NCBI GenBank assembly: GCA_049975385.1
Contig: JBNGDO010000001.1
Location: forward strand, 2,600-66,599
Length of the DNA: 64,000 nt
Source of the DNA: Anaerolineae bacterium
GTDB lineage: Bacteria > Chloroflexota > Anaerolineae > B4-G1 > SLSP01
Direction of reading: 5' to 3'
A program made the translations under genes and the position numbers. Below, in pieces: positions 12,266-57,320 of the stretch (its first letter is position 1; each line of letters opens with the position of its first letter). The notes beneath the pieces are model-generated. The model was given only the letters and a program-made list of their open reading frames with translations. It ran no database searches and was not told the origin of the DNA.

Positions 12266-12365
12266 GGTAATTGGAGATTGGGAATCAGTAATCAGTAATC
12301 GGGGATTGGGAATCAAGCTGGCGTCTTTCCCAATCCCCAGTTACCAGTTGCCGATTACCAATCCC
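12266..12365. repeat. Palindromic intergenic element built from 7-nt modules (GGGATTG/GGAATCA/GTAATCA ... CCCCAGT/TACCAGT/TACCAAT)
   Basis: The left arm ggtaattggagattgggaatcagtaatcagtaatcggggattgggaatc and the right arm ccaatccccagttaccagttgccgattaccaatccc are near-perfect reverse complements around a 15-nt loop. It fills the GH30-methyltransferase intergenic space exactly. Confidence 0.85.
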
Positions 12366-12375
12366 TACACTTGTT

Positions 12376-13026
12376 ATGGAATGTCCTTTATGTCTACACT
12401 CAGAGACGGAACGCGTGCAGGGACCGGACGCGCGCCGGTACTATGTGTGCGACACTTGCGCGTTGATCTTTGTCGATCCGGCTCAGCATCTATCGCCGGA
12501 TGAGGAGCGGGCGCGCTATCTGCTTCACCAGAACAGCCGGCAGGATCATGACTACGTGGCGTTTCTGAACCGGCTTCTCCGGCCGCTGTTGCCGTATCTC
12601 GATGCCGGCGCGCGTGGACTCGATTACGGCTGCGGCCCTGTGCCGGTCTTGTCGCATTTAGCGCGGGAGCAGGGTATCGTCTGTGACGATTACGACCCGT
12701 TTTTTGCGGACGGCGCGCTAAATCCACCTTATGGCGTGGTTTTCGCCTCTGAGTGTTTCGAACACTTTCACCGCCCGGCAGCAGAGATGGCGCGCATACT
12801 GGCTTTGTTGCAACCGGGTGGACTTTTGGGGATCATGACCGAACGCTGGACGACGCCGGCGGCGTTTGCAGGGTGGTACTACGCGCAGGCCCCGACGCAC
12901 GTGTGCTTTTATCACGCGGACACGTTCGACTTTCTGTGTGACCGCTTTGGTTTGACGCCCATGTGGCGAGATGAGAAGCGTGTCATCATCCTCCGGCGCA
13001 ATGTGGCCGGAGTGCGTGAACAGTAG
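12376..13026 (+). CDS. Class I SAM-dependent methyltransferase with N-terminal Cys4 zinc-ribbon
   Basis: The N-terminus has CPLC...CDTC. A GCG-containing SAM-binding loop (LDYGCGPV) and an acidic residue after beta2 follow. Substrate is unknown. Confidence 0.55.
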   Translation: MECPLCLHSETERVQGPDARRYYVCDTCALIFVDPAQHLSPDEERARYLLHQNSRQDHDYVAFLNRLLRPLLPYLDAGARGLDYGCGPVPVLSHLAREQGIVCDDYDPFFADGALNPPYGVVFASECFEHFHRPAAEMARILALLQPGGLLGIMTERWTTPAAFAGWYYAQAPTHVCFYHADTFDFLCDRFGLTPMWRDEKRVIILRRNVAGVREQ

Positions 13027-13176
13027 TTACGTACTTATGAACACGAACAAGGATTCTTACCGCGGAGCACGCAGAGTTCGCAGAGTTTTTATGCTTTTTC
13101 TCTGCGTGCTCAGCGATCTCTGCGGTGAAAAAATAAGGGCCGCGCAATGACTGTGTGAACATCAAGGAAATGAGGT

Positions 13177-14265
13177 GTGTCAATGAGCTTGTTATTCAAT
13201 CCTGGCGCCTTTGGTGCATTGAGCTTGCCCAATCGTCTTGTGCGTTCGGCCACTGCGGAGCGCATGGCGGACGATGACGGCCATCCGCTGCCTGAACTTG
13301 CTTCCCTGTACCGCGACCTGGCGCGCGGCGGGGTGGGGCTGATCATCACCGGGCACATGTACGTGCATCCTGCGGGACGGTGTCATCTGGGCATGACGGG
13401 CATCTACGACGACGCGTTGATCCCCGGACTGGCGGCGCTGGTCGATGCTGTGCATCATGAGGGTGGCAAAATCGCCGTGCAGATCAATCACGGCGGGATG
13501 CAATGCGCCCGCGAGAGCGTCGCCGGAACCATAGCGCCCTCGGCGGTGGACGCGTCGTTCCTGCTGCAGCCCGCGCGCGAGATGACGCCGGACGAGATCG
13601 CCACCGCCATCGACGCTTACGCGCAGGCGGCCCGCCGCGCTAAAGCTGCCGGGTTCGACGCGGTGCAACTGCACGGCGCGCACGGCTATCTGATCAACCA
13701 GTTCCTCTCGCCGTTCGTCAATCGTCGCTCCGACGCGTGGGGCGGTGATCTGGAGAATCGGATGCGCTTCCTGCGCGCTGTTTGTACGGCAGTGCGTGCC
13801 CAGGTTGGGCCGGATTACCCGCTGTTCATCAAGTTTGGGATGGTGGACGGCGTCGAGGGCGGCCTGACGCTCGCTGAAAGCGTGCGCGTTGTGGCGGGGC
13901 TGGCGGAGATGGGCCTGGACGCGGTCGAACTCAGCGGCGGGATTACCGCAGGGACCATCCAGAACTCCAAAGCGGGCGTGCGCGCCCCTGAGGATGAGGC
14001 CTACTTTCGCCATTTCGCGCAAGCGGCGCGCCCTGTCACGTCTTTGCCGCTGATGCTCGTCGGCGGTTTCCGTTCGCGGCAGGTGATGGACGATGTGCTG
14101 GACTCTGGCGATGTGGACTTCATCTCGCTGTGCCGTCCGCTCATCGCCGAACCGGACCTTCCACTGCGTCTGCAAGCCGGGCAAACCCGCGCCGCCTGCA
14201 TCTCCGGCAACCGTTGTTGGCCCAAAGCGGAAGGCGAAGGCATTGCTTGCCGGTGTTTGGATTAG
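13177..14265 (+). CDS. Old Yellow Enzyme family NADH:flavin oxidoreductase
   Basis: HGAHGYLINQFLSP...NRRSDAWGG and the overall TIM-barrel layout are typical of OYE / 2,4-dienoyl-CoA-reductase-like flavoproteins. Confidence 0.85.
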   Translation: MSMSLLFNPGAFGALSLPNRLVRSATAERMADDDGHPLPELASLYRDLARGGVGLIITGHMYVHPAGRCHLGMTGIYDDALIPGLAALVDAVHHEGGKIAVQINHGGMQCARESVAGTIAPSAVDASFLLQPAREMTPDEIATAIDAYAQAARRAKAAGFDAVQLHGAHGYLINQFLSPFVNRRSDAWGGDLENRMRFLRAVCTAVRAQVGPDYPLFIKFGMVDGVEGGLTLAESVRVVAGLAEMGLDAVELSGGITAGTIQNSKAGVRAPEDEAYFRHFAQAARPVTSLPLMLVGGFRSRQVMDDVLDSGDVDFISLCRPLIAEPDLPLRLQAGQTRAACISGNRCWPKAEGEGIACRCLD

Positions 14266-14280
14266 CTTTCAGCGGTCAGC

Positions 14281-14390
14281 TATCAGCGATCAGCGGTCAG
14301 CCGGAACGGTAGGTGTTGGCGCATGGTTCAACCACCAAACCACCAAACCACCAAACCACCAAACCACCAAACCACCTAACCACCGAACTG
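14281..14390. repeat. Two adjacent short tandem repeats in the nagB 5' region: (TCAGCGN)x5 then (ACCACCAA)x5
   Basis: Reads cagcggtcagctatcagcgatcagcggtcagcc followed by caaccaccaaaccaccaaaccaccaaaccaccaaaccacctaaccaccgaac, directly upstream of the nagB RBS aaggagg. Confidence 0.85.
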
Positions 14391-17790: not shown

Positions 17791-18222
17791 CTACATAATG
17801 TCCAGCACGCGGCTGAAGCGGGCCGCCAACTCTTGCAGCACGGCGACAGCCATATCTGCATCTTCACGGAGCAGGCCGAGGAAATCCCATCGTGTCAGGA
17901 CCAGGCAGCACGTTGGCTCGGTCGCCACGACCGAGGCAGTGCGCAGCCGCTCGGTCAGCAGCGCCATCTCGCCGAAGAAATCGCCTACTTCGAGTTCGTG
18001 TAGGGTAACCCCTGTCCCATCCAACTGTTCGCGGATAACCTCGACCTGGCCTTCTATGATGACGAAAAATCCTTCACCGCCTTTGCCTTGCGTGACGATT
18101 GTCTCACCTGGATCATACGTGCGCTCGACGAAGCGTTTCCCCACTTGTTCGATCTGCCGCCGGTTCAGCCCGCGGAACAGCGGCGTGCGTTGCAAGACGA
18201 TCAATCTATCAGCGACAGCCAT
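17791..18222 (-). CDS. Standalone cyclic-nucleotide-binding domain protein (143 aa), paralog of 9431..9868
   Basis: LFRGLNRRQIEQVGK...GDFFGEMALLTERLRTASVVATE has the same domain-only architecture as the first copy. Confidence 0.85.
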   Translation of the reverse strand: MAVADRLIVLQRTPLFRGLNRRQIEQVGKRFVERTYDPGETIVTQGKGGEGFFVIIEGQVEVIREQLDGTGVTLHELEVGDFFGEMALLTERLRTASVVATEPTCCLVLTRWDFLGLLREDADMAVAVLQELAARFSRVLDIM

Positions 18223-26339: not shown

Positions 26340-26597
26340 AAATAGCCTAACCCGGATAAACCGGAACTAAGCAGGCCATCGATGCCCGTGTTCTCGCTCA
26401 TTGTGCAAGAATTTAGGTGGTTAGGCCCTGACTTCTTATCCTGAAGGGCACTTTGGTATTTCTTTATAACATTATAACACTGCGATTGCGGTTTGTCAAT
26501 AGGTTTGCCGGGATTTTTGCTGATCTATTTTCAAATGCGCGATTGACTTTGAGCCAAATTGGCGAGAATGGAGACGAAATCATTATCAGGAGGGGGT

Positions 26598-27215
26598 ATG
26601 GACATCTGGCAGGGACAGTGGGTACGTCTGCGCGGCGTGGAGCCGGGCGACGCCGATGTTTTCTTCGCGTGGCGTGACAGTGATATGGGGCGCTTTACGG
26701 ATTTTGTAAAGTTCCCACATTCATTGGAAGCCACCCGCAAGCACTTTGAGAAGATGGCGACGTCGGAAGCAAAGGACGACGCTTTCGATTTCGTCATCGA
26801 GAACGAAGGTGGAGAAGCCGTCGGCATTATCAACTCACATACCTGTGACCGACGGGTGGGGTGCTTTATGTACGGCCTGGCGATTGGCCCGGATTATCGT
26901 CGCAGAGGCTACGCCGCCGAAGCCATCCTCCTGCTGTTGCGCTATTTCTTCGATGAACGCAATTACCAGAAGGTCTCGGCGACAGTCTATTCGAACAATG
27001 AAGCCTCACAGCGCCTCCACGAGCGTCTGGGGTTTACGCTGGAGGGCCGCATCCGCCGCGTGGTCTTTACGCTAGGCCAGCACTTCGATGAGCTCCACTA
27101 CGGGATGACGGTGGAAGAGTTTCGGGCGAATAAGCGAATGAGCGAATGGATGAATCAGCGAATGGATGAATCAGCGAATGAGCGAATAGAAGAATTCCCA
27201 ACCACCAATCGCTGA
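26598..27215 (+). CDS. GNAT family N-acetyltransferase (RimJ/RimL-like) with repeat-encoded C-terminal extension
   Basis: Start at MDIWQGQWVRLR, after aggaggggg. The acetyl-CoA motif is RRRGYAAEAILLLLRYFF. The last ~30 aa (ANKRMSEWMNQRMDESANERIEEF...) are encoded by GCGAATN heptamer repeats. Confidence 0.75.
   Translation: MDIWQGQWVRLRGVEPGDADVFFAWRDSDMGRFTDFVKFPHSLEATRKHFEKMATSEAKDDAFDFVIENEGGEAVGIINSHTCDRRVGCFMYGLAIGPDYRRRGYAAEAILLLLRYFFDERNYQKVSATVYSNNEASQRLHERLGFTLEGRIRRVVFTLGQHFDELHYGMTVEEFRANKRMSEWMNQRMDESANERIEEFPTTNR
27126..27188. repeat. Tandem heptanucleotide repeat (GCGAATN x9) inside the 3' end of the GNAT gene
   Basis: Reads gcgaataagcgaatgagcgaatggatgaatcagcgaatggatgaatcagcgaatgagcgaatag. 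Confidence 0.85.
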
Positions 27216-27225: not shown

Positions 27226-27357
27226 CTAATCCCCACTTGCTTTTCTGCGTTGAAAGACAATGGGCAGCAATGGCAAGGCGACCACGTTGAGCGCAGCGAT
27301 GATGACGAACGTCCAGCGGAAACCCCAATACGCTCCCGCCGGGTCGATGAAGTGCTT
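27226..27357 (-). pseudogene. 3' fragment (~43 codons) of an MFS-type transporter gene, truncated at the palindromic repeat element
   Basis: Reverse-complement translation gives TKHFIDPAGAYWGFRWTFVIIAALNVVALPLLPIVFQRRKASGD*, a typical last TM helix plus C-tail. No upstream remainder of the gene exists, and the repeat element starts at 27357. Confidence 0.35.
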
Positions 27358-27469
27358 GGTAATCAGTAATCAGTAATTGGGGATTGGGAATCTGATGGTT
27401 CGTTTGTTCTCCGAACCTGCCAGTTACTAATCCCGAATTACCAATCCCCAATCCCCAATCACCGATTAC
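27357..27469. repeat. Palindromic modular repeat element (same family as 12266..12365)
   Basis: The left arm ggtaatcagtaatcagtaattggggattgggaatc and the right arm ccagttactaatcccgaattaccaatccccaatccccaatcaccgattacc flank an internal hairpin ggttcgtttgttctccgaacc. It overlaps the stop of the GT2 gene. Confidence 0.85.
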
Positions 27470-28403
27470 CGTTTGCCATTCGCAGTTTGCTCTTGAGCAC
27501 CTGACGGTAGGCGGCGATGCGGGCGGCGCGTAGGTCGCGGCGGTGGCCGACGAGCCATTTCGCGCCCTCGACGCCGGTCTGCCAGAGGTATTGGGCGAGC
27601 AGCCAGAGCCGCAGGAGTTCGGCGATGGTGTTGCCGTGGACTTTGCGCGTGTAGCGCACTTTGCTCGATTGGAAGTAGATGTGGCGCGCGGGCACAACCT
27701 GTTCGCTGCTCTTGCCCTCGTGGTGGATGATGCGCGCCTCCGGAAAGTAGACGACGCGCCACCCGGCTTCCCGTATCCGGCGACACCAATCCAGTTCCTC
27801 GGAGTACATAAAGAAGCCCTCGTCCATGCCACCAACTTGCGCGACAACTTCACGGCGTGTCAGCATGGCCGCGCCAGTGATCCAATCCACGTTCTGGATA
27901 AGATCATCGGGTTGCTCTTGCGCGTAGTAATAACGCAACAGCTTGCGCGGCGCGAGTTTTTCGAGCCAGGTGCTTTCGAGGAAAAGCACCGGCAGGGTGG
28001 GGAAGTGACGGCGCGAGGATTGCACGCTGCCGTCGGGATTGAGCAGTTGCGGGCCGGCCATACCTACATCGGGATGCGCCCGGATGTAGTCCACCATGCG
28101 CGGCAGTGCGTCCTCCACGATTTCGGTGTCGGGATTGAGCAGCAGCACGAAGTCGCCTGTGGCGGCGGCGAGGCCCTGATTGTTGCCGCCGGTGAACCCA
28201 CGGTTCTTTGCGTTGGCGATGACGTGCACGTCGGGGAAGGTCGCGCGCAGCATGGCGACGCTCTCATCGTGCGAGGCATTATCGGCGACGATGATTTCTA
28301 ATCCGGGTTTTCCATTCCATGAGGCATAGACGGAGGTGAGGGCACGCTTTAGCAGATCACGCACGTTCCAGCTCACGATAATGACGGACAGAACGGTGTT
28401 CAT
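27459..28403 (-). CDS. Glycosyltransferase family 2
   Basis: VIIVSWN...ADNASHDES...DFVLLLNPDT is the GT-A fold with a DxD-type motif, followed by the later ED..W region. Confidence 0.8.
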   Translation of the reverse strand: MNTVLSVIIVSWNVRDLLKRALTSVYASWNGKPGLEIIVADNASHDESVAMLRATFPDVHVIANAKNRGFTGGNNQGLAAATGDFVLLLNPDTEIVEDALPRMVDYIRAHPDVGMAGPQLLNPDGSVQSSRRHFPTLPVLFLESTWLEKLAPRKLLRYYYAQEQPDDLIQNVDWITGAAMLTRREVVAQVGGMDEGFFMYSEELDWCRRIREAGWRVVYFPEARIIHHEGKSSEQVVPARHIYFQSSKVRYTRKVHGNTIAELLRLWLLAQYLWQTGVEGAKWLVGHRRDLRAARIAAYRQVLKSKLRMANGNR

Positions 28404-30322: not shown

Positions 30323-30547
30323 GTCAAGGGGCAGACTACAAAAGTCTCAGCGGATATCCATTCTTTGTGCACTCTCGCGCAACGCACGGGTTTGTTCAAC
30401 CAGACAGATCGTGAGATTTTTGTAGTCTCAGGTGTTTTCGACGATTTATCTACGTACCGCTTATGAAATTCTAATACGACTGTGTTATAATCCTGAAGCT
30501 GAAGATGTACATGATACTGAACTGACCGGATAACCGCGGACTAGACC

Positions 30548-33256: not shown

Positions 33257-33287
33257 ACAGACCTTCCAATGCTAAAATAGCAAAATG

Positions 33288-33325
33288 ACGCCGCTACTTC
33301 GCGCGAAGTAGCGGCGTTTTGTTGT
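33288..33325 (+). terminator. Rho-independent terminator after lon
   Basis: A 30-nt perfect palindrome acgccgctacttcgc/gcgaagtagcggcgt followed by TTTGTTGT. Confidence 0.8.
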
Positions 33326-36487: not shown

Positions 36488-37888
36488 ATGATCAAAGTAG
36501 CAGTTATTGGAGCAGGAAGTCTCACTTTTACACGGCGGTTGATGATGGACATTCTGGCCGTTCCGGAACTGCGCGATACCGAGTTCCGCTTCATGGATAT
36601 CAACCCGACGTATCTGGAGATGGTCACGAACGTTTGTCGGAAAATGATGACGGATGCAGACATCCGCGCCGATAGCGGCGTCCCCACCACAATTGTACCC
36701 ACGCTCGACCAGCGCGAAGCGATTGCGAGCGCGGATTACGTCTTTTGTCTGGCGCGGGTGGGCGGCCTGGAAGCGTTCCGTCACGACATCGAAATCCCGC
36801 TGAAGTACGGCGTGGATCAGTGCGTAGGCGACACGTTGGGGCCGGGCGGCATCTTCTACGCGCTGCGCAGCATCCCCGTGCTGCTCGACATCGCCAAAGA
36901 CATGCGCGAGGTCGCGCCGGGCGCGCTGCTGCTCAACTATTCCAATCCCATGGCGATGAACACCTGGGCCGTGCGTCGCGCGGGCGGTGTGCCGATTGTT
37001 GGATTGTGTCACGGCGTCCACGGCGGACATTACCAGATTGCGCAAGTGCTGGACCTGCCGCAAGACGAAGTGGACTTCATCTGCGCGGGGATCAATCACC
37101 AGACGTGGTACATCCAGGTGACGCACAAGGGCAAGGATATGACGCCCTATCTGCTCGAAGCCTTCGAGAAGCATCCCCGGTATTCGCAGACCGAGAAAGT
37201 GCGCATCGACGTGCTGCGGCGCTTCGGCTACTACTCGACGGAGTCTAACGGCCATTTGAGCGAGTATGTGCCGTGGTATCGCAAGCGGCCTGACGAGATC
37301 AAGGACTGGATCTCGCTGGACAGTTGGATCAACGGCGAAACCGGCGGCTATCTGCGGGAGACGACCGAGAAACGCGAAGAATACGAAGAGCTGTACCCCA
37401 AGTACATGAGCGGCGAAGTGGACATGATCCCCCTCGGTGACCGCAGCAGCGAACACGGATCGTACATCATCGAGTCGCTGGAGACCGGGCGGCTGTATCG
37501 CGGGCACTTCAATGTGGCGAATACGGGCCTCATCACCAATCTGCCCGACGGCTGCACCGTCGAGTTGCCCTGCTACGTGGACGGCAACGGCATCAGCCCG
37601 GCGTGGGTGGGCGATTTGCCGATGGCGTGCGCGGCGACGTGCCGCGTCAGCGTCAATGTGCAGGAGATGGCGGTCGAGGCGGCGTTGACGGGCAACCGCG
37701 AACTGGTCAAGCTTGCCGTGCTCCACGACCCGCTGACCGGCGCCGTCTGCAACCCGCCGGAAGTCTGGGCGATGTGCGACGAAATGTTCGACGCCCTGGC
37801 CCCGTGGCTGCCGCAGTTCAACGGTGAAGGACGCACGTGGCCCGACATCCCACAGCCCAACGGCGGCATCTTGCGATTCCCAAAATAA
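36488..37888 (+). CDS. Glycoside hydrolase family 4 (NAD+/Mn2+-dependent alpha-glucosidase/alpha-galactosidase-like)
   Basis: The Rossmann motif KVAVIGAGS, NYSNP, and the Cys-His metal site (GLCHGV) are GH4 hallmarks. The RBS is aggagg. Confidence 0.8.
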   Translation: MIKVAVIGAGSLTFTRRLMMDILAVPELRDTEFRFMDINPTYLEMVTNVCRKMMTDADIRADSGVPTTIVPTLDQREAIASADYVFCLARVGGLEAFRHDIEIPLKYGVDQCVGDTLGPGGIFYALRSIPVLLDIAKDMREVAPGALLLNYSNPMAMNTWAVRRAGGVPIVGLCHGVHGGHYQIAQVLDLPQDEVDFICAGINHQTWYIQVTHKGKDMTPYLLEAFEKHPRYSQTEKVRIDVLRRFGYYSTESNGHLSEYVPWYRKRPDEIKDWISLDSWINGETGGYLRETTEKREEYEELYPKYMSGEVDMIPLGDRSSEHGSYIIESLETGRLYRGHFNVANTGLITNLPDGCTVELPCYVDGNGISPAWVGDLPMACAATCRVSVNVQEMAVEAALTGNRELVKLAVLHDPLTGAVCNPPEVWAMCDEMFDALAPWLPQFNGEGRTWPDIPQPNGGILRFPK

Positions 37889-37889
37889 A

Positions 37890-37953
37890 GTAGACGGTAG
37901 ACAGTAGACGGTAGACGGGGGGGAGTATCCCTGTCTACCGTCTACTGTTTTCT
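37890..37953 (+). terminator. Terminator hairpin built from GTAGACG heptamer repeats
   Basis: gtagacggtagacagtagacggtagacggggggg pairs with ccctgtctaccgtctactg (19-bp stem, one mismatch) and is followed by TTTTCT. Confidence 0.75.
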
Positions 37954-38040
37954 GTCTACCGGTATGCCGTTTAACTTTCAAAGACGGGTATAACTTCAGT
38001 GCAATCTCTTTGCCCTCCTTGCTATACTGTGAAAGCAGGT

Positions 38041-38108
38041 GGGATCAGGGATTAGGGAGCGGGTTGCAGTTGCTTTCCCAATCCCCAGTCCCTAATTCCC
38101 AGTTACCC
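38041..38108. repeat. Palindromic modular repeat element in the 5' leader of the fused oxidoreductase gene
   Basis: gggatcagggattagggagcggg ... cccaatccccagtccctaattcccagttaccc, downstream of a tatact -10-like box. Confidence 0.8.
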
Positions 38109-38125: not shown

Positions 38126-41100
38126 ATGGCAGACTATCGTATCAAAGCACACCCGATTCTTTCGGTCCTTTCCGATGATTTCGTCGAATTTACCTGGCAG
38201 GGCGAGCCATTGACGGCGCGGCGCGGGGAGATGATCGCGTCGGCGTTGTTCGCGCACGGCATCCACGTCTTCGGGCATCATCACCACGATAGATCGCCGC
38301 AGGGCATCTTCTGCGCGAACGGGCAATGCTCGCAGTGTCTCGTCATCGCCGACGGGCTGCCGGTGAAGGCGTGTATGACACCGGTGACGACTGGTATGGT
38401 CGTCGAGCCTTTGGAAGGATTGCCTGTGTTGCCGCCAGTGGCGGAGCCACCACCCTCACGTGCCTTGGAGACGGTGGACGCGCCCGTGCTCATCATCGGT
38501 GGGGGACCGGCAGGGATGTCGGCGGCGATCCAGTTGGCGGAGTACGGTGTCCGCGTGTTGCTGGTGGATGACAAGGATCGCCTCGGCGGGAAGCTGGTCT
38601 TGCAGACGCACCGCTTCTTCGGCTCCGTGGACGCCGTCTACGCGGGCACACGCGGCATCGACATCGCCACACGGCTCGAAGAAGACGTCCGCCGCCACGA
38701 CAACATCGAAGTCTGGCTCAACAGCACCGCATTGGCGGTTTTTAGCGACGGCAAAGTGGGGATTCTGCGGGGCGCGGATCATGAATCACGAATCACGAAT
38801 CATGAATCACGGATTACGGATCACGCATCACGCCTCACGCGTCACGAGCCGGAGTATGTTCTGGTTCACCCCGAAATCCTCCTCGTCGCCGCGGGCGCGC
38901 GGGAGAAATCGCTGACGTTCAAGGGGAACACGCTGCCGGGTGTCTATGGCGCGGGGGCGTTCCAGACGTTGGTGAACCGCGATTTGGTGCGGGCTGCCGA
39001 GCGGCTGTTTATCGTCGGTGGTGGGAACGTGGGGTTGATCGCGGGGTATCACGCGCTTCAGGCCGGTATCGAGGTGGTGGGGCTGGTCGAGGCGCTGCCG
39101 GAATGTGGCGGGTACAAGGTCCACCGGGACAAGCTGGCGCGTTTTGGCGTGCCGATTTACACATCGCACACAATTCTGTCTGCCAACGGCGACCCCGCCA
39201 ACGGCGGTAACCATGTGGAATCGGTGACAATTGCCCAGGTCGATGAGCATTTCCAGCCAATCCCTGGCACGGAGCAATCCTTTGCCTGCGACACGGTGCT
39301 CATCGCCGTGGGCCTCGATCCGGTGAACGAGTTTACGCAGAAGGCGCGGGACTTCGGGATGACGGTGTTCGACGCGGGCGACGCTCAGGAGATTGCGGAA
39401 GCCTCGGCGGCGATATTTTCCGGCAAGATTCGCGGGCTGGAGATCGCGCGGGCGCTCGGCGCGACGGAGGACGCCGTCCCCGATGAGTGGCGGCGCACTG
39501 GCGACATCCTCAAGTCGCATCCCGGCGCGGTGATTCCGGAGCGCATTCCCGAACAGGAGGAGGGCGTTTTCCCGGTCTTCCACTGCTCGCAGGAGATTCC
39601 GTGCAATCCCTGCACCTCGGTCTGTCCGCAGCAGTTGATCCACATTGACCCAACCGACATCCGCGGTATCCCTACTTACCTGGGCCTGGAGGCGGAGAAG
39701 GCGTGCCTGGGCTGTGAGCAATGCGTCGCCGTGTGCCCCGGGCTGGCGATCACGTTGGTGGATTACCGCAAGGACGCCGAGATGCCGACCGTGACGTTGG
39801 CCTACGAGTTTCTAGCGAGCCGCATCGCCGTTGGCGACCGGGTGACAGCGCTCGATACGGTGGGCAACGTTCTCGGCGAGGCAGAGGTAACAAGTGTGCG
39901 TGCGATCAAGCGCAACGACCGCACTGTGTTGGTCAAATTGCGCGCGCCGAAGGCGATTGCCAAGCTGATCGCCGGGCTGCGTGTGCAAGACCTGGCGGTC
40001 GGTTCGGCGCTGAGCGACGAAGTTGTGAATCTGGACGACGACGCGGATGCAGACATCCGAATCGTCTGCCGCTGCGAGCGCGTGACGGCGGGCGAAATCC
40101 GCGCGCTGATCCGCAAGGGCTACCGCGACGTCAACGAGATCAAGGCCGTCACGCGCGCCGGGATGGGCGCTTGCGGCGGCAAAACGTGCAGCGCGCTCAT
40201 CCTACGTCTCTTCCGCGAGGAAGGCATCCCCCTCGACGAAGTCACCCCAAACATTCCGCGTCCCCTCTTCGTCGAGGTTCCGCTGGGTGTCTTTGCGGCA
40301 AATCAGCGAATGGGCGAATCAGCGAATAGCGGATTACGAGATACGAATCACGAATCACGAATTACGGATCGCGCATCACGCATCACGCATCAAGGCCCCC
40401 TTACTCCTTACTCCGTACTCCCTACTTCTTCTGATGTGATCATCATCGGCGCCGGAAGTGTGGGCGTGCCGGCGGCGCTGGCGATGACGCGGATAGGGCT
40501 GAAGGTGCGCGTGTTCGACGGGGCGGCGAGCCAGGGACAGGGTTCCAACAAATCGGCGATTGGCGGCGTGCGCGCCACACACTCCGATCCGGCGAAGATT
40601 CGCCTGTGCCTGCGCAGTCTGGAGATTTTCTCGACGTGGGAGGAAACCTACGGCCACAACATCGAGTGGACGACCGGGGGCTACACCTTCGTCGCCTACC
40701 GCGAGCGCGAGGCGCAGACGCTCAAGAATCTGCTCAAGGTCCAGCATACCTACGGCCTCGACATCGACTGGTACGACCGCGATGATTTCCTCCGGATCGT
40801 TCCCGATGTGAACCGCGAGGGTCTCCTCGGCGGGACGTTCTCCCCGCACGACGGGCATTGCTCGCCTTTGCTGGCGGGGCACGCTTTCTACGATGCGGCG
40901 AAAGCAGCGGGCGCGCTCTTCCACTTCGACGAGCCGGTGACGGAGATTCTGGTCGACGACACGATCACAGGCCGGCGCATACGCGGCGTGCGGACGAACC
41001 GGGAAACCTACCTCGCGCCAGTCGTCGTCAACGCTGCCGGGGCGTGGGCGCGGGCCGTCGGGCGATGGGTGAACATGGATCATCCCGTGCAACCTGAGTC

Positions 41101-41587
41101 ACACGAGGCTGGAATCACCGAACCGGTGGCGCATTTCCTCGATCCGATGCTGGTAGACATCCGCCCCGCGCCGGGATCGGCCAACTACTACTTCTTCCAA
41201 TTGCGGGATGGGCAGGTCGTTTTCTGCATCACGCCGCAGCCGAGCATCGCGGGCTTCGATCGACGCGAGACGAGCGTTTTCTTGCCGCAGGTTGCGTCGC
41301 GTATGGTGGATTTGGTCCCGCGTCTGGCGAACCTTCGCGTGCGGCGCACTTGGCGCGGCCTCTACCCGATGACGCCGGACGGCTCGCCGCTCGTCGGTTG
41401 GGCGCGGGAGGTGAGCGGTTATCTGATGGCGATCGGCATGTGCGGGCAGGGCTTCATGCTCGGTCCCGGCCTGGGCGAGCTGCTGGCGCGGATGGTCGCG
41501 CAGGAGGAGCTGTCGCCGGAAGATCGGGAGGTGTTGAAGGTGTTGTGGCCGTACCGGGCGTTCGCGGGGGAGGAGGCGTTGAAGTAG
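38126..41587 (+). CDS. Fused HcnA/HcnB/HcnC-like (opine oxidase / heterotetrameric sarcosine oxidase / PDH1-like) FAD and Fe-S oxidoreductase, 1153 aa
   Basis: Residues 1-95 form a 2Fe-2S domain (CANGQCSQC...C). A pyridine-nucleotide-disulfide oxidoreductase follows (VLIIGGGPAGMSAA ... FIVGGGNVGL). Next come two 4Fe-4S-like motifs (CSQEIPCNPCTSVCP, CLGCEQCVAVCP) and a BFD-like 2Fe-2S (CRCERVT...GMGACGGKTC). After a heptamer-encoded linker lies a DAO-family FAD oxidase (VIIIGAGSVGVPAALAM...). There is no stop codon anywhere in the frame. Confidence 0.75.
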   Translation: MADYRIKAHPILSVLSDDFVEFTWQGEPLTARRGEMIASALFAHGIHVFGHHHHDRSPQGIFCANGQCSQCLVIADGLPVKACMTPVTTGMVVEPLEGLPVLPPVAEPPPSRALETVDAPVLIIGGGPAGMSAAIQLAEYGVRVLLVDDKDRLGGKLVLQTHRFFGSVDAVYAGTRGIDIATRLEEDVRRHDNIEVWLNSTALAVFSDGKVGILRGADHESRITNHESRITDHASRLTRHEPEYVLVHPEILLVAAGAREKSLTFKGNTLPGVYGAGAFQTLVNRDLVRAAERLFIVGGGNVGLIAGYHALQAGIEVVGLVEALPECGGYKVHRDKLARFGVPIYTSHTILSANGDPANGGNHVESVTIAQVDEHFQPIPGTEQSFACDTVLIAVGLDPVNEFTQKARDFGMTVFDAGDAQEIAEASAAIFSGKIRGLEIARALGATEDAVPDEWRRTGDILKSHPGAVIPERIPEQEEGVFPVFHCSQEIPCNPCTSVCPQQLIHIDPTDIRGIPTYLGLEAEKACLGCEQCVAVCPGLAITLVDYRKDAEMPTVTLAYEFLASRIAVGDRVTALDTVGNVLGEAEVTSVRAIKRNDRTVLVKLRAPKAIAKLIAGLRVQDLAVGSALSDEVVNLDDDADADIRIVCRCERVTAGEIRALIRKGYRDVNEIKAVTRAGMGACGGKTCSALILRLFREEGIPLDEVTPNIPRPLFVEVPLGVFAANQRMGESANSGLRDTNHESRITDRASRITHQGPLTPYSVLPTSSDVIIIGAGSVGVPAALAMTRIGLKVRVFDGAASQGQGSNKSAIGGVRATHSDPAKIRLCLRSLEIFSTWEETYGHNIEWTTGGYTFVAYREREAQTLKNLLKVQHTYGLDIDWYDRDDFLRIVPDVNREGLLGGTFSPHDGHCSPLLAGHAFYDAAKAAGALFHFDEPVTEILVDDTITGRRIRGVRTNRETYLAPVVVNAAGAWARAVGRWVNMDHPVQPESHEAGITEPVAHFLDPMLVDIRPAPGSANYYFFQLRDGQVVFCITPQPSIAGFDRRETSVFLPQVASRMVDLVPRLANLRVRRTWRGLYPMTPDGSPLVGWAREVSGYLMAIGMCGQGFMLGPGLGELLARMVAQEELSPEDREVLKVLWPYRAFAGEEALK
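38777..38846 (+). repeat. In-frame heptanucleotide repeat inside the FAD/NAD domain, encoding DHESRITNHESRITDHASRLTRHE
   Basis: Reads gatcatgaatcacgaatcacgaatcatgaatcacggattacggatcacgcatcacgcctcacgcgtcacg. The reading frame avoids the TGA present in other frames. Confidence 0.85.
40301..40430 (+). repeat. In-frame heptanucleotide repeats (GCGAATN, GAATCAC, CATCACG, CTTACTC families) forming the linker between the HcnB-like and HcnC-like parts
   Basis: Reads aatcagcgaatgggcgaatcagcgaatagcggattacgagatacgaatcacgaatcacgaattacggatcgcgcatcacgcatcacgcatcaagg...ccttactccttactccgtactccctacttcttct. It encodes NQRMGESANSGLRDTNHESRITDRASRITHQGPLTPYSVLPTSS. Confidence 0.85.
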
Positions 41588-41591
41588 GCGA

Positions 41592-41646
41592 GGATGCAGG
41601 ATGCAGGATGCAAGAGTGTGATTGGATTGCCGGGTGGGGATTGAAT
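41592..41646. repeat. Heptamer repeat (GGATGCA x3) plus GATTGGA-type modules directly after the oxidoreductase stop
   Basis: Reads ggatgcaggatgcaggatgcaag gtgtgattggattgccgggtggggattgaatc. Confidence 0.75.
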
Positions 41647-41729
41647 CTTCACCAGTTAATGATATAATGAATTAAAGAATTTATGTGGAATTACAGAATT
41701 CTGTAAAGCCTGGTGAAAGGAGTTGTCTG

Positions 41730-42002
41730 GTGACTGTCAATATCAAGAATCAAGAGGTGGAGAGTTTATTGGACTCTGTCGTTCAATTGACCGGAGAAAC
41801 CAAAACCGCTGCAATCCGTCAAGCCCTGGCTGAACGGTTGGAGCGTCTCTCTTTGATGCGTGTGGTTCCCCAGGATGCGGCTCGGCTAGAGGCGTTTCTG
41901 CAAGACGAAATCTGGGCTAATATCCCAAAGCATCTGCTTGGAACGTCTTTGACTAAAGCGGAAGAAGAGGCTATTCTGGGCTATGGAGAGCATGGAATAT
42001 GA
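41730..42002 (+). CDS. vapB: VapB-like antitoxin (ribbon-helix-helix/Arc-type) of a VapBC pair
   Basis: The likely start is GTG 41730, preceded by aaaggag (the ORF track starts at ATG 41685). The fragment TKTAAIRQALAERLERL is typical of small antitoxins. Its stop overlaps the vapC start (ATGA at 41999..42002). Confidence 0.6.
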   Translation: MTVNIKNQEVESLLDSVVQLTGETKTAAIRQALAERLERLSLMRVVPQDAARLEAFLQDEIWANIPKHLLGTSLTKAEEEAILGYGEHGI

Positions 42003-42385
42003 TCGTTGATACTTCAGCGATTGCGGCGATCTTTTTTAAGGAATCCGGATATGAGGATCTGCTAGAGAAGCTCGGTCGTGCTCACGAGGTAGGGATCGGT
42101 GCGCCGACATTGGTCGAATGTGGCATTGTCCTGAGTGCGCGGTTGGGGCGCGATGCACGTGGAATGTTGTCTCGTTTCTTGGAAGAGACTCATGTGTTTA
42201 TTGTGCCCTTTGTTGATGTGCATTACAGTACGGCTGTAACGGCGTGGCAGAAATTTGGCAAGGGAAGACATCCTGCTGCATTGAATTTCGGCGATTGTTT
42301 GACCTATGCTGTTGCCAAGCTGGCGGGAGGCCCCCTGTTGTGTGTAGGCGATGACTTTTCGCAAACCGATCTGGAATTAGCGTAA
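41999..42385 (+). CDS. vapC: PIN-domain toxin VapC
   Basis: MIVDTSAIAAIF (first acidic D), NFGDCLTYAVAK and GDDFSQTDL carry the conserved PIN acidic residues. Length is 128 aa. Confidence 0.8.
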   Translation: MIVDTSAIAAIFFKESGYEDLLEKLGRAHEVGIGAPTLVECGIVLSARLGRDARGMLSRFLEETHVFIVPFVDVHYSTAVTAWQKFGKGRHPAALNFGDCLTYAVAKLAGGPLLCVGDDFSQTDLELA

Positions 42386-42430
42386 TCAGCTGGCCACCAA
42401 CAGACGCTTGTCGTATTTGAGAGCAACTAC

Positions 42431-42469
42431 AGGTGCGACGCACTTTCCGAAGTGCGTCGCACCTTTTAT
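42431..42469 (+). terminator. Rho-independent terminator after vapBC
   Basis: Stem aggtgcgacgcactt / agtgcgtcgcacct with loop tccga, followed by TTTTA. Confidence 0.8.
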
Positions 42470-42581
42470 GTCAGTAGTCTATTTTGGGGTATTTGATTAT
42501 AATGAAGGAGTGGGGTGGAATCCACTCCTTCATCTGTTATACGACAGGTAAGTGCGGATTAGCTGCTAGGAGAAATGACTA

Positions 42582-43373
42582 ATGAACGCTAACCGATTTG
42601 ATGAGTTTGTCCAATTACTGACTCAACTCCCGATAGATGTATGGCAAGCGGCAGTGCTGGAGGAGCCTGAGTGGAAATGGATGCTGCCTTTGTCGAAGGT
42701 GTGGGAATTTGGGCATTTTGCGGTTTTGTTTGTTGTTCTCGGACTGAACGATTACCAGACGAAAGGGAAAGCCGACGTTGGATACTGGCCTAAAGTGGTG
42801 CCTTTGATCCGCCAAGGATCTGAGCCGAAGGATCTGTTGCAATTAATTGATGTTCTGGAACCGTTTTTCATCAGAGAGCGATTCGGGCAAAACAAAACCA
42901 AAAGGCTCAAGCGATTTCTGGAAAGTAATCTTTGCCGTGAGATTTGGGTAAGCAGCCCTTCTTCACTTGCGGCAAATTTCGGACGAATTTGGCACTCCCT
43001 TGGACTTGCAATGAGGCAAAAGTCTACTGATAAAACGATAGCTTTTGCGATGAAGTGTTTGGCGCTTGCGCTTCTAATGGCTAATGAAACTAAGTTTGAC
43101 TTTGGAGCTATCCCAGTACCGGTGGATTCACGAATCCGAAATATCTCGACTCGTCTTGGCCTCACTAGCGGGGATGAAGCGACAGAACGTGAAAGGTGGC
43201 GTAGAGTGCTTGATCGCATTCGCGAATCACATCCTGAAATCACAATGGTACATCTTGATAGCCTTCTTTGGCAAATTGGCACTTTGTCTCCGCAAGAGAT
43301 GAAATCTCATCTCGTAAAACTTGGAAGTGGTAGTCTGGCACCGCGCATTTCTCAACTCTTCTACAGGTTTTGA
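42582..43373 (+). CDS. HhH-GPD-superfamily protein, probable AGOG-like N-glycosylase/DNA lyase (8-oxoguanine DNA glycosylase type); located in a low-GC island
   Basis: AFAMKCLALALLMANETKFDFGAIPVPVDSRIRNISTRLGL matches the glycosylase K...P-V-D-[ST]-x-I-x-R-[VI]-x-x-R-L-G pattern (EndoIII: PTIAVDTHIFRVCNRTQF) with a non-canonical hairpin. Local GC is ~45 % against ~62 % in flanking DNA. Confidence 0.4.
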   Translation: MNANRFDEFVQLLTQLPIDVWQAAVLEEPEWKWMLPLSKVWEFGHFAVLFVVLGLNDYQTKGKADVGYWPKVVPLIRQGSEPKDLLQLIDVLEPFFIRERFGQNKTKRLKRFLESNLCREIWVSSPSSLAANFGRIWHSLGLAMRQKSTDKTIAFAMKCLALALLMANETKFDFGAIPVPVDSRIRNISTRLGLTSGDEATERERWRRVLDRIRESHPEITMVHLDSLLWQIGTLSPQEMKSHLVKLGSGSLAPRISQLFYRF

Positions 43374-43415
43374 TACACCAAACTCAAGTAGTCATTACCG
43401 TATATAGGTGGGAAT

Positions 43416-43745
43416 ATGGAATTCACCGACCTTATTCAACGCGCTCTGTCAATTCGCAAGCTGTATAGCGAGTTTGAGGAACAAAACTACGGCACCTCCT
43501 GGACCAACGAAGAACTGGCCCTGGGTTTTGTGGGCGACGTTGGCGATCTGGTCAAACTTGTCATGGCGCAAAGCGGGCGTCGCACGATCCCCGATGCGGA
43601 AAGTAAATTGGCGCACGAATTGGCCGATTGTCTATGGTCCGTCATCGTTCTTGCCGATGTGCATAACATAGACCTGGAAGACGCCTTTTTACGAACAATG
43701 GACGATCTGAAAAATCACATCAAGAAGAATCTGGTTGTAGGATAA
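43416..43745 (+). CDS. MazG-like nucleotide pyrophosphohydrolase (small all-alpha NTP-PPase)
   Basis: 109 aa. WTNEELALGFVGDVGDLVKLVMA and AHELADCLWSVIVLADVHNIDLEDAF fit the MazG/HisE-like EExxE/D metal-binding helix layout. Low GC. Confidence 0.65.
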   Translation: MEFTDLIQRALSIRKLYSEFEEQNYGTSWTNEELALGFVGDVGDLVKLVMAQSGRRTIPDAESKLAHELADCLWSVIVLADVHNIDLEDAFLRTMDDLKNHIKKNLVVG

Positions 43746-50035: not shown

Positions 50036-50704
50036 ATGTGCGGACGTTTTACTTTGGGTGTGAATCTTGATGATCTGATCGAGGCGTTCCCGGACTTTAC
50101 GTTCCCGCCGGAGACGGAGCCGCGCTACAACATCGCGCCGACGCAGAACGTGATGGTCGTCCCCAACAACACTGCCGGGCACGTGAGCTTCTTTCGGTGG
50201 GGGCTAATCCCCTCTTGGGCCAAGGACCCCGCCATCGGCAACCGGCTAATCAACGCGCGCGGCGAGACACTGGCGGAAAAGCCGTCGTTCCGCGCAGCCT
50301 ATCTCCGACGGCGCTGTTTGATCCTCGCGGATGGTTTCTACGAATGGCAAGTGGTACCCGGCAGCAAGACCAAGCAGCCGATGTATATCCAACTGGCGAC
50401 GAAAAAGCCGTTCGCCTTTGCCGGATTGTGGGAACTCTGGCGGCCCGACGACACGCCCATCCTCTCCTGCACCATCATCACCACCGAGCCGAACGCCCTG
50501 CTCGCGCCGATCCACAACCGCATGCCCGTCATCCTGCCGCCGGACGCCTACGCCTTGTGGCTCGATCCCGCCGAACAGAAACCCGCCGCGCTCAATCACC
50601 TGCTCACGCCCTATCCCGCCGGCCTGATGACCGTCTATCCCGTCTCCCGCCTCGTCAACAGCCCGTCGAACGACACACCCGATGTGGTAATCGGTGAGCA
50701 GTAA
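50036..50704 (+). CDS. SOS-response-associated peptidase (SRAP/YedK/HMCES family) abasic-site processing protein
   Basis: The N-terminal MCGRF places the catalytic Cys at position 2 (third ATG of the ORF). FRWGLIPSWAKD and LADGFYEW are conserved SRAP motifs. Confidence 0.85.
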   Translation: MCGRFTLGVNLDDLIEAFPDFTFPPETEPRYNIAPTQNVMVVPNNTAGHVSFFRWGLIPSWAKDPAIGNRLINARGETLAEKPSFRAAYLRRRCLILADGFYEWQVVPGSKTKQPMYIQLATKKPFAFAGLWELWRPDDTPILSCTIITTEPNALLAPIHNRMPVILPPDAYALWLDPAEQKPAALNHLLTPYPAGLMTVYPVSRLVNSPSNDTPDVVIGEQ

Positions 50705-52177: not shown

Positions 52178-52264
52178 TCGATGTAGTTGCGGTTTCCATA
52201 CCGCGTGCGTAGGTGCGGCTTTCTTGTCAGCAGATTGAGCAGATTAAGCAGATTTTTGGTGTGG

Positions 52265-52296
52265 GCTTGCGGCGGATCGTACGATCCGCCGCAAGC
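52265..52296. terminator. Bidirectional terminator (perfect 32-nt palindrome) between convergent M20 and GNAT genes
   Basis: gcttgcggcggatcgtacgatccgccgcaagc followed by TTTT. It is preceded by the tandem GCAGATT repeat cagcagattgagcagattaagcagatt (52222..52250). Confidence 0.75.
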
Positions 52297-52300
52297 TTTT

Positions 52301-56271: not shown

Positions 56272-56381
56272 TCCTAATTTCCTCCCAGGTTATTATGTGG
56301 CCTTGCTGACGTTATTATATGCGCCTTTGTTTTGTCGGCAAGAAAAGTCATTTGAACGTTATGCCGAAGTTGTGTATACTT

Positions 56382-56436
56382 TGGGCGTAAGATGTGATAC
56401 GTAAAGCGTGATGTGTGAAACGTGAGCAGAGAATCA
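56382..56436. repeat. Degenerate heptamer repeats (GTGATAC/GTGAAAC/GAATCAC) in the glnA / sugar-isomerase divergent region
   Basis: Reads gatgtgatacgtaaagcgtgatgtgtgaaacgtgagcagagaatcacgtatcag. Confidence 0.65.
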
Positions 56437-56471
56437 CGTATCAGCAAGAAAATTATCTCAAGGAGAACAAA

Positions 56472-57224
56472 ATGACCCGTATTCCCATTGCCCTGCAATT
56501 ATATTCCATTCGCCACGATTGTGAGGAAGACCTGCCTGGTACGCTGAAGGCCGTTGCGGAGATGGGCTACGAAGGTGTGGATTTCGCCGGGTATTATGGC
56601 TACGACGCTCCGACAATCCGCGCGATCCTCGATGATCTGGGCCTTAAGGCTGCGGGATGTCACACCGGCATCCAGACCTTACTCGGCGACGAGTTGCAGA
56701 AGACGGTTGAGTTCAATCGCATTCTCGGCAACAAGTATCTGATCGTGCCCGGCCTGCCAGAATCTTATCGCGATTCCCGCGACGCCTGGCTCAGAACCGC
56801 CGAGGTGTTCAACGAGATCGCGGCCAAACTCAAGCCTGAAGGTATGTTCACCGGCTATCACAACCACCACATCGAGTTCACACCGCTGGATGGTGAACTG
56901 CCGTGGGATACCTTCTTCGGCAACACCGTGCCCGAGGTGGTGATGCAGATCGATCTCGGCAATGCGCTGCACGGTGGGGGCGATCCGGTGGCTTTCCTCA
57001 AACGCTATCCGGGCCGCGCGCGCACGGTGCATCTCAAGGCATACTCCGCGACGAACGACAAGGCGCTCATCGGCGAGGATGACGTGGATTGGACCGAGGT
57101 CTTCCGCGTCTGCGAGGCCGATCCCGTGACCGAGTGGTACATCGTCGAGCAGGAGAGCTACCCGTACTCGCCGCTGGAGAGCGTGGAACGTTGTCTCCAG
57201 GCGCTCAAGGCGATGGGGAAATGA
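56472..57224 (+). CDS. Sugar phosphate isomerase/epimerase (xylose-isomerase-like TIM barrel)
   Basis: Start at MTRIPIALQLYSIR, after aaggag. Metal-binding H/E/D residues are spaced as in the AP-endonuclease-2 / L-ribulose-5-P 3-epimerase fold. Confidence 0.75.
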   Translation: MTRIPIALQLYSIRHDCEEDLPGTLKAVAEMGYEGVDFAGYYGYDAPTIRAILDDLGLKAAGCHTGIQTLLGDELQKTVEFNRILGNKYLIVPGLPESYRDSRDAWLRTAEVFNEIAAKLKPEGMFTGYHNHHIEFTPLDGELPWDTFFGNTVPEVVMQIDLGNALHGGGDPVAFLKRYPGRARTVHLKAYSATNDKALIGEDDVDWTEVFRVCEADPVTEWYIVEQESYPYSPLESVERCLQALKAMGK

Positions 57225-57225
57225 G

Positions 57226-57320
57226 GCAGGATGCAAGAATCAGCGAATCAGCGAATGACTGAATCGGCGGATCACGGATCACGAATCCCCAATTACCAGT
57301 TACCGATTACCAATCATAGA
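57226..57320. repeat. Composite heptamer repeats (GGATGCA, GCGAATC, GGATCAC, then CCAATTACCAGTTACCGATTACC module) between the isomerase gene and uxuA
   Basis: Reads gaggcaggatgcaagaatcagcgaatcagcgaatgactgaatcggcggatcacggatcacgaatccccaattaccagttaccgattaccaatc. Confidence 0.85.

Follow-up and report, generated by a model that had tools for sequence, protein, structure and literature searches.

The question addressed here is the origin and nature of five sequences, denoted E1-E5, that lie between genes in a 64,000-nt stretch of an Anaerolineae (Chloroflexota) genome (contig JBNGDO010000001.1; the whole stretch is referred to below as the window) and whose arms are assembled from the same heptanucleotide modules. 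A sequence-only reading of the window had taken them for a family of palindromic elements resembling miniature inverted-repeat transposable elements (MITEs) or repetitive extragenic palindromic (REP) sequences, either mobile or recombinogenic, or for structured RNAs acting as terminators or mRNA stabilizers. Our analysis suggests a different answer: E1-E5 are probably local arrays of degenerate heptanucleotides, made in place by slippage and template switching and confined by selection to transcribed sequence that tolerates them. They are repeats of a kind known from Xanthomonas, with the unit sequence (GGGANTN)n, from Nostoc (GGGGAYT) and from the short tandemly repeated repetitive (STRR) sequences of cyanobacteria, and they represent an example of a known repeat class in a new lineage rather than a new mobile element.

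Direct reading bore out the positions of the five sequences and their composition of 7-nt modules. The left arms are built of units such as GGGATTG, GGGAATC, AGTAATC and GGTAATC, and the right arms of AATCCCC, AGTTACC and GATTACC. The left arm of E1 reads GGAGATT-GGGAATC-AGTAATC-AGTAATC-GGGGATT-GGGAATC and that of E2 GGTAATC-AGTAATC-AGTAATT-GGGGATT-GGGAATC, and the right arm of E1, AATCCCC-AGTTACC-AGTTGCC-GATTACC-AATC, has close variants in E2-E5. The arms are indeed shared between elements, matching at 95% over 37 nt in E1 and E2 (12278-12314 and 27356-27392) and at 94% over 32 nt in E1 and E5 (12332-12363 and 57284-57315). The word GATTACCAATC, with one mismatch or none, occurs 11 times in the window versus 0.83 expected, and the modules are overrepresented two- to fivefold, with 25-63% of their copies (median ~36%) found in the non-coding 8% of the window.

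E1-E4 each consist of a G-containing array with the C-rich inverse after it, an arrangement in which the sequence can fold, as DNA or RNA, into an imperfect hairpin of 25-40 bp. The repeat finder delimited arms of 37 nt in E1 (78% complementary, with 14 nt between them) and of 35 nt in E2 (83% complementary). When the RNA folding of each element was compared with that of 200 dinucleotide shuffles, E1 reached -47.2 kcal/mol (z -4.99), E2 -45.4 kcal/mol on the plus strand (z -5.6) and -60.5 kcal/mol on the minus strand (z -9.2), E3 -35.5 kcal/mol (z -3.2) and E4 -38.4 kcal/mol (z -2.76). Thus, the description of the elements as imperfect hairpins holds for E1-E4 (z -2.8 to -9.2), but not for the one-armed E5 (-16.2 kcal/mol, z +0.20), in which GAATCAGC/ACGGATC units are followed by CCCAATT-ACCAGTT-ACCGATT-ACCAATC and no hairpin forms because the second array is not complementary to the first. 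The claim that each element occupies an entire intergenic space likewise applies to some of them, namely E1 and E4; E5 as first delimited covers just the right half of a spacer filled with arrays, E3 is the final 90 nt of a 237-nt spacer, and the 243-nt spacer of E2 also holds a gene remnant. The overlap with the end of the GT2 gene is real, the stop codon (27459-27461) being located inside E2 and the final three codons of the gene consisting of array units. Similarly, the SRAP stop codon (TAA, 50702-50704) sits within an AGTAATC unit of E4.

These five elements belong to a larger set of about 20 arrays in the window, with units of seven or eight nucleotides (Table 1). Arrays were detected with Tandem Repeats Finder and a period scan, and compared with the shuffled window: the scan recovered 13 arrays of period 7, versus 0.25 in shuffles, and periods 5, 6, 9 and 10 gave 0-2; several arrays of 8-nt variants are present besides. 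The units are diverse and unrelated to each other (e.g., ATGAATC, TCAGCGA, GTAGACG, CCTTACT, AGGATGC). On the gene map, which was derived from codon statistics and Pfam, the arrays are almost confined to short spacers of co-directional genes on either strand, where they typically span from the upstream stop codon, or from within it, to the ribosome-binding site. None is found in the four divergent promoter regions (10654-10919, 26340-26558, 30323-30547 and 56272-56414). Some arrays extend into gene ends. In the GNAT open reading frame (ORF; 26559-27215), the Pfam domain extends to around residue 160-179 of 218, the last ~30 codons (27126-27215) are encoded by an 8-nt array beyond it, and the orthologue in L141 (relatives are denoted by the L numbers of their loci) ends earlier. 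The (ATGAATC)n array, here delimited as 9383-9430, places several ATGs just upstream of the cyclase start codon. Arrays similar to the one at 41587-41619 lie ~60-90 nt upstream of the next gene in L082 (GGATGCA type) and L084 (GGGTGCA/AGGTGCA type).

The turnover of the arrays was followed in 165 loci, which included one syntenic contig at 95% (L001), 80 species representatives around the UxuA gene, 80 metagenome contigs around the GH4 gene and four contigs of closer strains. The UxuA protein of the window (57334-58323) is 100% identical to a protein labelled "MAG: Anaerolineae bacterium", and its near relatives all come from metagenome-assembled genomes (MAGs) of Anaerolineae or Chloroflexota. 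The close clade has 50 period-7 arrays in 239 kb, that is 2.1 per 10 kb, and the window about 2 per 10 kb. Relatives at 92-97% protein identity carry arrays at matching sites, with units that are partly or wholly different, and arrays are sporadic in a few other Chloroflexota and absent in most relatives at 80-85% protein identity; a spacer comparison with distant array-free relatives yielded nothing, synteny being lost outside the close clade. Replacement of units is evident at site after site. In the spacer upstream of UxuA, which holds E5 in the window, L002, L003 and L006 keep the string ...CCGATTACCAGTTACC...CCAATCAC-AAAAGGA (also rendered as ...GATTACCAGTTACC...CCAATCAC), with units gained, lost and mutated, and the right part of E5 is common to the window and these three by descent; L001 and L005 have GAGGCAA/ATTACGA units instead. 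In L165 (100-245), a 96% relative, the AP-endonuclease-like gene is missing and the UxuA heptamer leader immediately adjoins the divergent promoter region (56272-56414 in the window). An E5-like string, ACGAATC x4 - CCCAATT-ACTGATA-ACCAGTT-ACCGATT, lies upstream of the GH42 gene in L004 (1840-1925); this locus has an extra gene inserted between UxuA and GH42, and the E5 string of the window stands one spacer earlier, upstream of UxuA. At the E4 site, the SRAP/M20 spacer of L001 contains CGAGTAG and ATTTCTA arrays that fold no better than shuffles.

Sequence and folding also change around the GH4 gene. Its upstream spacer contains a non-folding GAATCAT array in the window (z +0.3), an E1-like hairpin (GGTAATCGGTAACTGG...TTACCAGTTACTAATCCC) in L141 and L084 (z -1.7 and -1.2, respectively), a GAAATGG/CCATTTC hairpin in L085 (z -5.4) and a GCGAATC/GATTCGC hairpin in L082 (z -4.5). 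Downstream of GH4, the order in five genomes is a GTAGACG hairpin, a conserved block of ~70 nt and a hypervariable leader, which carries E3 in the window, an ACGAAT/ATTCGT hairpin in L114, other hairpins in L141 and none in L082 and L084. This leader, upstream of a large dehydrogenase ORF, folds with z -4.0 in L141, -2.75 in L114 and -3.2 in the window. Judged by conservation and position, E3 would lie in a 5' leader; a promoter consensus scan did not call the conserved TTGCTATACT block upstream of it. In relatives, about one in two spacers that contain arrays showed no more folding than shuffles (z -1.7 to +0.5), which rules out hairpin potential as a universal trait of such spacers.

The strongest hairpin of the window is not one of E1-E5 but a sixth one, built of GTAGACG and GTCTACC units directly after the GH4 stop codon (37885-37965; -55.1 kcal/mol, z -10.5). 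Its stem (37901-37948) with a T-rich tail is terminator-like, and the GTAGACG/GTCTACC hairpin and the tail are kept in all five genomes (window, L141, L082, L084 and L114), with double changes at 2 of 37 pairs. It looks like a conserved terminator stem built of heptamers. Ordinary terminators, consisting of a GC hairpin and a T-run, are present separately (e.g., 33287-33318, 52263-52298 and 60417-60451). No U-tract follows any of E1-E5, a terminator-like tail was not seen at E1, and we do not call these elements intrinsic terminators. A role of the predicted structures as terminators or mRNA stabilizers, as envisaged by the sequence-only reading, is possible for E1-E4.

Two further observations bear on whether the elements are recombinogenic. 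In the spacer upstream of UxuA, the near-identical strains represented by L162 (140-175) on the one hand and L163 (1000-1035) and L164 (330-365) on the other are distinguished by a heptamer hairpin whose central 20 nt are exactly inverted, GCGTGAAAGGCAAATTACGC versus GCGTAATTTGCCTTTCACGC. Loop flips of this kind are the typical trace of template switching, or of recombination between the arms of a hairpin, and this one supports template switching. The second observation concerns E2, which adjoins a remnant of a membrane-transporter gene; the sequence-only reading had already noted a gene remnant there. The decayed end of the gene is recognizable by a tblastn match covering 27229-27324; in L141 (605-1807) and L082 (331-1521), an intact copy encoding 400 aa separates the GNAT gene from the GT2 gene. 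The orthologous site in these two relatives has a plain spacer without E2, and the common part is just CCGATTACCGTT at the GT2 stop. Accordingly, E2 grew in the window lineage at the gene-decay junction. The suggestion that the elements are recombinogenic is supported in part, by the loop inversion and by the position of E2.

The arrays are also found within a gene. The ORF at 38126-41587 (1153 aa) encodes a 2Fe-2S domain, an alpha-like flavoprotein and a beta-like DAO domain; the alpha-like and beta-like parts are separate chains in the proline dehydrogenase complex of Pyrococcus (PDB 1y56). Two arrays (38772-38851 and 40294-40431) are read through in one frame in the window and in L141, L082/L083, L084 and L114, i.e., in four distinct relatives and five loci, two of which are identical. 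Maintenance of a single frame across genomes indicates that it is kept by selection. The encoded peptides are hypervariable amid highly conserved flanks, for example ADHESRITNHESRITDHASRLTRHE (NHESRIT...); NHESRITNHESRIT is another, as predicted from the sequence. The second array is located exactly at the alpha/beta junction, where the beta chain begins, and looks like a former intercistronic spacer turned linker. Arrays thus persist wherever they are tolerated.

Composite arrays have a marked polarity. Of the 24 arrays of at least 60 nt in the clade, which include orthologues and hence are not all independent, 20 contain G in the left half and are rich in C and poor in G in the right half, and none shows the reverse. 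The polarity of the hairpins is identical on both strands, and in non-palindromic arrays it puts the G-poor half beside the ribosome-binding site. Possible reasons are avoidance of an exposed C-rich stretch that would load Rho before its complement is transcribed, or a requirement that the sequence ahead of the ribosome-binding site stay unstructured.

Table 1. Coordinates of heptamer-built elements, other arrays and associated features (positions in the window unless a relative is named)
Feature	Start	End	Strand	Description
E1	12264	12375	.	Heptamer-built hairpin filling the GH30/methyltransferase spacer; arms 12276-12312 and 12327-12363
E2	27350	27480	.	Heptamer-built hairpin lying between the decayed transporter gene and the GT2 3' end; arms 27357-27391 and 27444-27478
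E3	38036	38110	.	Hairpin in the leader of the 1153-aa dehydrogenase ORF
E4	50686	50790	.	Heptamer-built hairpin filling the SRAP/M20 peptidase spacer
E5	57225	57320	+	Two-part array without hairpin; fills the AP-endonuclease-like/UxuA spacer
(ATGAATC)n	9378	9438	.	Fills the spacer of two minus-strand genes
(TCAGCGR)n, then (AACCACCA)7.4	14264	14392	+	Jointly fill the spacer as far as the ribosome-binding site
(ATCACGN)n	15169	15197	+	Directly 3' of the stop codon at 15153
8-nt (GCGAATGA)n	27126	27187	+	Encodes the C-terminal tail of the GNAT ORF
Membrane-transporter gene remnant (400 aa when intact)	27229	27357	-	Internal stretch (FIDPAGAYWGF) fused to the C-terminal 32 residues
GAAGCTG and ATTCGCTC arrays	35224	35278	+	Gene end and the spacer after it
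GAATCAT/ATCACGN	36436	36476	+	Fills the spacer upstream of GH4
Sixth hairpin, (GTAGACG)4 - loop - (GTCTACC)4	37885	37965	+	Directly after the GH4 stop codon; terminator-like
(ATCACGA)n, x10	38772	38851	+	In frame, translated within the 1153-aa ORF
(GCGAATCA/ACGAATC)n (CGAATCA x11), then CCTTACT x4.6	40294	40431	+	In frame, at the alpha-like/beta-like dehydrogenase junction
(AGGATGC)3	41587	41619	+	At the stop codon of the 1153-aa ORF
CGACTAC/TGACTAT units	58316	58352	+	Fill the UxuA/GH42 spacer
Orthologue of the 1153-aa ORF, L141	11717	15166		
Orthologue of the 1153-aa ORF, L082	11604	15041		
Orthologue of the 1153-aa ORF, L084	2678	6163		
Orthologue of the 1153-aa ORF, L114	1486	4926		

In the scenario that we consider probable, replication slippage would add or remove 7-nt units, with arrays arising and turning over in place, intramolecular template switching would make and flip inverted copies, and purifying selection would restrict the arrays to transcribed co-directional spacers, leaders, dispensable C-terminal tails, and surface loops or linkers of proteins. 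Most arrays would be near-neutral spacer filler transcribed within polycistronic mRNAs. Their hairpin versions would provide intercistronic or 3' stem-loops that could be co-opted as a terminator stem or as structures that protect or process 3' ends, and the G-poor 3' half would leave the ribosome-binding site unstructured. Co-option of some arrays as a terminator stem and as protein linkers is plausible. Several observations weigh against this scenario, at least in its simplest form. Slippage alone does not explain why the same few units keep reappearing at unlinked loci and in different species, nor the arm segments shared by E1 with E2 (37 nt, 95%) and with E5 (32 nt, 94%), the three exact copies of GATTACCAATC in the window, or the E5-like "sentence" before a different gene in L004; the strict order of G-containing left and C-rich right halves implies selection or a directional mechanism that we cannot name with confidence. 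The recurring words could mean copying between loci or selection for the words themselves, for instance as a binding site. Homogenization specific to a genome, whether by concerted evolution or recent spread, was considered and rejected: when array pairs were compared by their longest common substring, at least 11 nt were shared by 13.9% of same-genome pairs versus 14.6% of different-genome pairs, a conservative comparison in that orthologous pairs inflate the between-genome class. Given this negative outcome, we read the shared "sentences" as a constrained vocabulary, possibly with occasional copying between arrays.

The recurrence of words is also what a mobile miniature element would leave behind, be it a MITE or a REP or REPIN (REP doublet forming a hairpin) moved by RAYT or an IS200/IS605-type TnpA, with the hairpins as copies of one element. 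Arm segments recur at unlinked loci, GATTACCAATC is in excess, at the E2 site the gene is intact in relatives and the hairpin is missing, and an E5-like arm precedes another gene in L004. Like REP/REPIN sequences and MITEs, the elements are imperfect intergenic hairpins of ~100 nt present at many loci, and in overall size and hairpin shape they resemble REPINs, reportedly described by Bertels and Rainey in 2011. Nevertheless, we regard mobility of this type as very unlikely. No target-site duplications were found in the flanks read for E1-E5, and those of E1-E4 show no direct repeats; lengths vary between 41 and 113 nt, the ends differ in every copy, a full-length alignment is impossible, and just the 32-37-nt arm segments match, with no constant termini or near-identical full-length copies. 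The conserved palindromic core of 20-40 nt typical of REP sequences is absent, the arms being strings of variable heptamers with an internal 7-nt periodicity that pass gradually into arrays of different units and are remodelled through changes of units. Clean pairs of filled and empty sites were not found in relatives, in which the orthologous sites are never empty and contain other arrays or diverged versions, or are rearranged in the flanks as well (E2 site). Words are shared no more commonly within genomes than between them, and none of the ~40 predicted proteins of the window (64 kb of genome), scanned against Pfam, is a transposase. Hence, the MITE/REP-like mobility proposed by the sequence-only reading is not borne out. 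By the sequence-only reading, few copies and no variation between strains would have pointed to local structured regulatory sequences; in fact, copies are many and vary strongly between relatives, yet the pattern is that of simple-sequence repeats and not of transposition.

Selection for RNA structure, with stem-loops needed as terminators, barriers to 3' exonucleases or RNase III sites, would be compatible with the origin by slippage and template switching, and we consider it possible, although short of likely. In its favor, E1-E4 fold far better than shuffles, the GTAGACG hairpin with its T-rich tail is conserved in five genomes, and Xanthomonas repeats of this kind are transcribed (PMC4692102). 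Furthermore, hairpins of unrelated sequence occur at the same sites, as selection on structure would give: strong ones upstream of GH4 in two of four relatives (L085 and L082), the E1-like ones of L141 and L084 being weaker, and others in the leader of the dehydrogenase ORF in the window and two of the four relatives folded. However, E1-E5 lack U-tracts, folding does not exceed that of shuffles in E5 and about half of the array spacers of relatives, the conserved GTAGACG hairpin shows scant covariation, and arrays are present inside ORFs, where RNA structure is not needed. Comparison of sense and antisense folding, a test for RNA-level selection via G-U pairs, gave mixed results, with no consistent advantage of the sense strand. 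The arrays could instead be binding tracks for a factor that reads single strands in ~7-nt steps or prefers C-rich, G-poor RNA (cold-shock proteins (Csp), S1-type proteins and Rho being candidates) and couples transcription or translation of the downstream cistron to the array. A limited vocabulary recurring across loci and species would fit such a factor, as would the constant position of the G-poor, C-rich half beside the ribosome-binding site (e.g., (AACCACCA)7 and CCAATTACCAGTTACCGATTACC) and the proposal of S1, Csp or CsrA binding to TAACTGA heptamers (MacGregor 2015; PMC4679880). We find this idea unlikely, given that units at one site differ completely between relatives, that most relatives with the same genes lack arrays, and that no candidate protein is linked to arrays in the window. 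Somewhat less likely still is a more elaborate version, in which a clade-wide vocabulary of heptamers (xGAATC, GRTTACC, AATCCCC, CCAAAAT and CCCTACT), arranged in transcribed spacers with the G-containing part before the G-poor part, is copied between loci by a templated process without a transposase, is read by a Csp/S1-type factor or by Rho for polarity, processing or translation of the downstream cistron, and lends modules to proteins as linkers. Finally, the arrays might act as G-quadruplex (G4)/i-motif switches, as Rehm et al. proposed for the GGGAATC and GGGGAYT repeats, oligonucleotides of which form G4s in vitro (PMC4692102). Only E3 qualifies: both of its arms, 38041-38063 on the plus strand and 38077-38100 on the minus strand, match the canonical (G3N1-7)4 motif, which occurs nowhere else in the non-coding part of the window. 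E1, E2, E4, E5 and most other arrays have no four closely spaced G-tracts, hairpin formation competes with that of G4s, and Rehm et al. found no regulatory role (PMC4692102); this explanation is extremely improbable.

Several other features of the window deserve mention. GAATC/GATTC, which falls under the GANTC motif, is enriched 15-fold in arrays, with 27 occurrences per kb versus 1.8 per kb elsewhere. An N6/N4 DNA methylase (PF01555) is encoded at 33375-34184; a link between GANTC methylation and the arrays was considered and dropped, nothing connecting the methylase with the enrichment. Searches of the whole window gave no Rfam 15 matches at the gathering score and no tRNA. Genes for cyclic-nucleotide signalling are located at 1534-9868 and 17791-18222 and encode a 1302-aa zinc-ribbon/adenylate-cyclase/AAA_16 protein, a 1261-aa protein with HEAT and cyclic nucleotide monophosphate (cNMP)-binding domains, and two small cNMP-binding proteins. 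An island of low GC content (41685-43745; 0.50 versus 0.59 for the window) carries a VapB-like/PIN toxin-antitoxin pair, an AGOG-type DNA glycosylase and a MazG-like protein. The GH42 gene (58368-60399) is divided between two reading frames, with the break at ~58643-58645 within a GC-rich tract and ~7 residues missing compared to L001, and is either a pseudogene or affected by an assembly error.

Heptamer repeats have been known in cyanobacteria since 1990. The present data add an uncultured Anaerolineae clade in which such repeats dominate operon spacers, and provide clear comparative snapshots, including the rewriting of sites in sister species, the G-first/C-second polarity, the loop flip, the terminator stem and the translated linkers, which constrain models towards slippage and template switching filtered by selection on transcripts. 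For annotation, it follows that such hairpins should not be called MITEs, and that arrays can blur gene ends and create apparent gene fusions.

More generally, heptanucleotides are the most abundant or overrepresented long simple repeats in many bacteria, which has been attributed to polymerase slippage (Mrazek 2007, as cited in later papers), and within Chloroflexota, (GATAGRA)n satellites are known from Chloroflexus aurantiacus (PMC6749651). Our literature search returned nothing relevant on heptamer repeats in Anaerolineae or on the STRR unit CCCCAGT. The word CCCCAGT/AATCCCC, which we take to be of the STRR1 type, is present in E1, E2, E3 and E5. Cyanobacterial STRR heptanucleotides, described in Calothrix, Anabaena and Nostoc (Mazel et al. 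1990), are likewise tandem repeats dispersed in non-coding spacers, often inside operons; unlike the heterogeneous "sentences" found here in a different phylum, the STRRs of heterocystous cyanobacteria are mostly homogeneous runs of one unit. In marine Beggiatoaceae, some Cyanobacteria and Bacteroidetes, TAACTGA heptamers are located immediately before start codons and, in some cases, within ORFs, and CspB binds one heptamer per protein (MacGregor 2015; PMC4679880). The arrays of the window resemble them as short intergenic arrays upstream of start codons with occasional in-ORF copies, in their patchy phylogenetic distribution, and in the mixing with other heptamers seen in some genomes. However, the TAACTGA repeats have one dominant unit in one orientation, the nearest unit here, CCAGTTA (reverse complement of TAACTGG), is opposite, and inverted-pair hairpins are described there in a single case only.

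The most extensive parallels are with the (GGGANTN)n repeats of Xanthomonas campestris and X. axonopodis and the GGGGA(C/T)T repeats of Nostoc PCC 7120 (Rehm et al. 2015; PMC4692102). These number ~185 sites per genome, 89-93% of them intergenic, mostly between co-directional ORFs and near the upstream one, and are depleted between divergent ORFs; 70-75 convergent inverted pairs are capable of forming stem-loops, the Xanthomonas repeats are transcribed, sister species share gene positions and differ in length and sequence, and no function was found (PMC4692102). The host of the arrays described here belongs to the Anaerolineae (Chloroflexota), their vocabulary is broader (xGAATC, GGTAATC/GGTAACT, GTAGACG, CCAAAAT, CCCTACT, AGGATGC and 8-nt variants), most of them cannot form G4s, and they usually fill the spacer from stop codon to ribosome-binding site, some being translated in frame. 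In common with the Xanthomonas and Nostoc repeats, they consist of a degenerate 7-nt unit, GGGAATC and GGGGATT themselves being present in E1 and E2, are strongly intergenic in co-directional spacers near the end of the upstream gene and rare between divergent genes, frequently form inverted pairs (E1-E4 and 37885-37965) in the same "convergent" arrangement as in Xanthomonas, and occupy fixed sites with variable length and sequence in relatives (L001-L006, L141, L082, L084 and L114).

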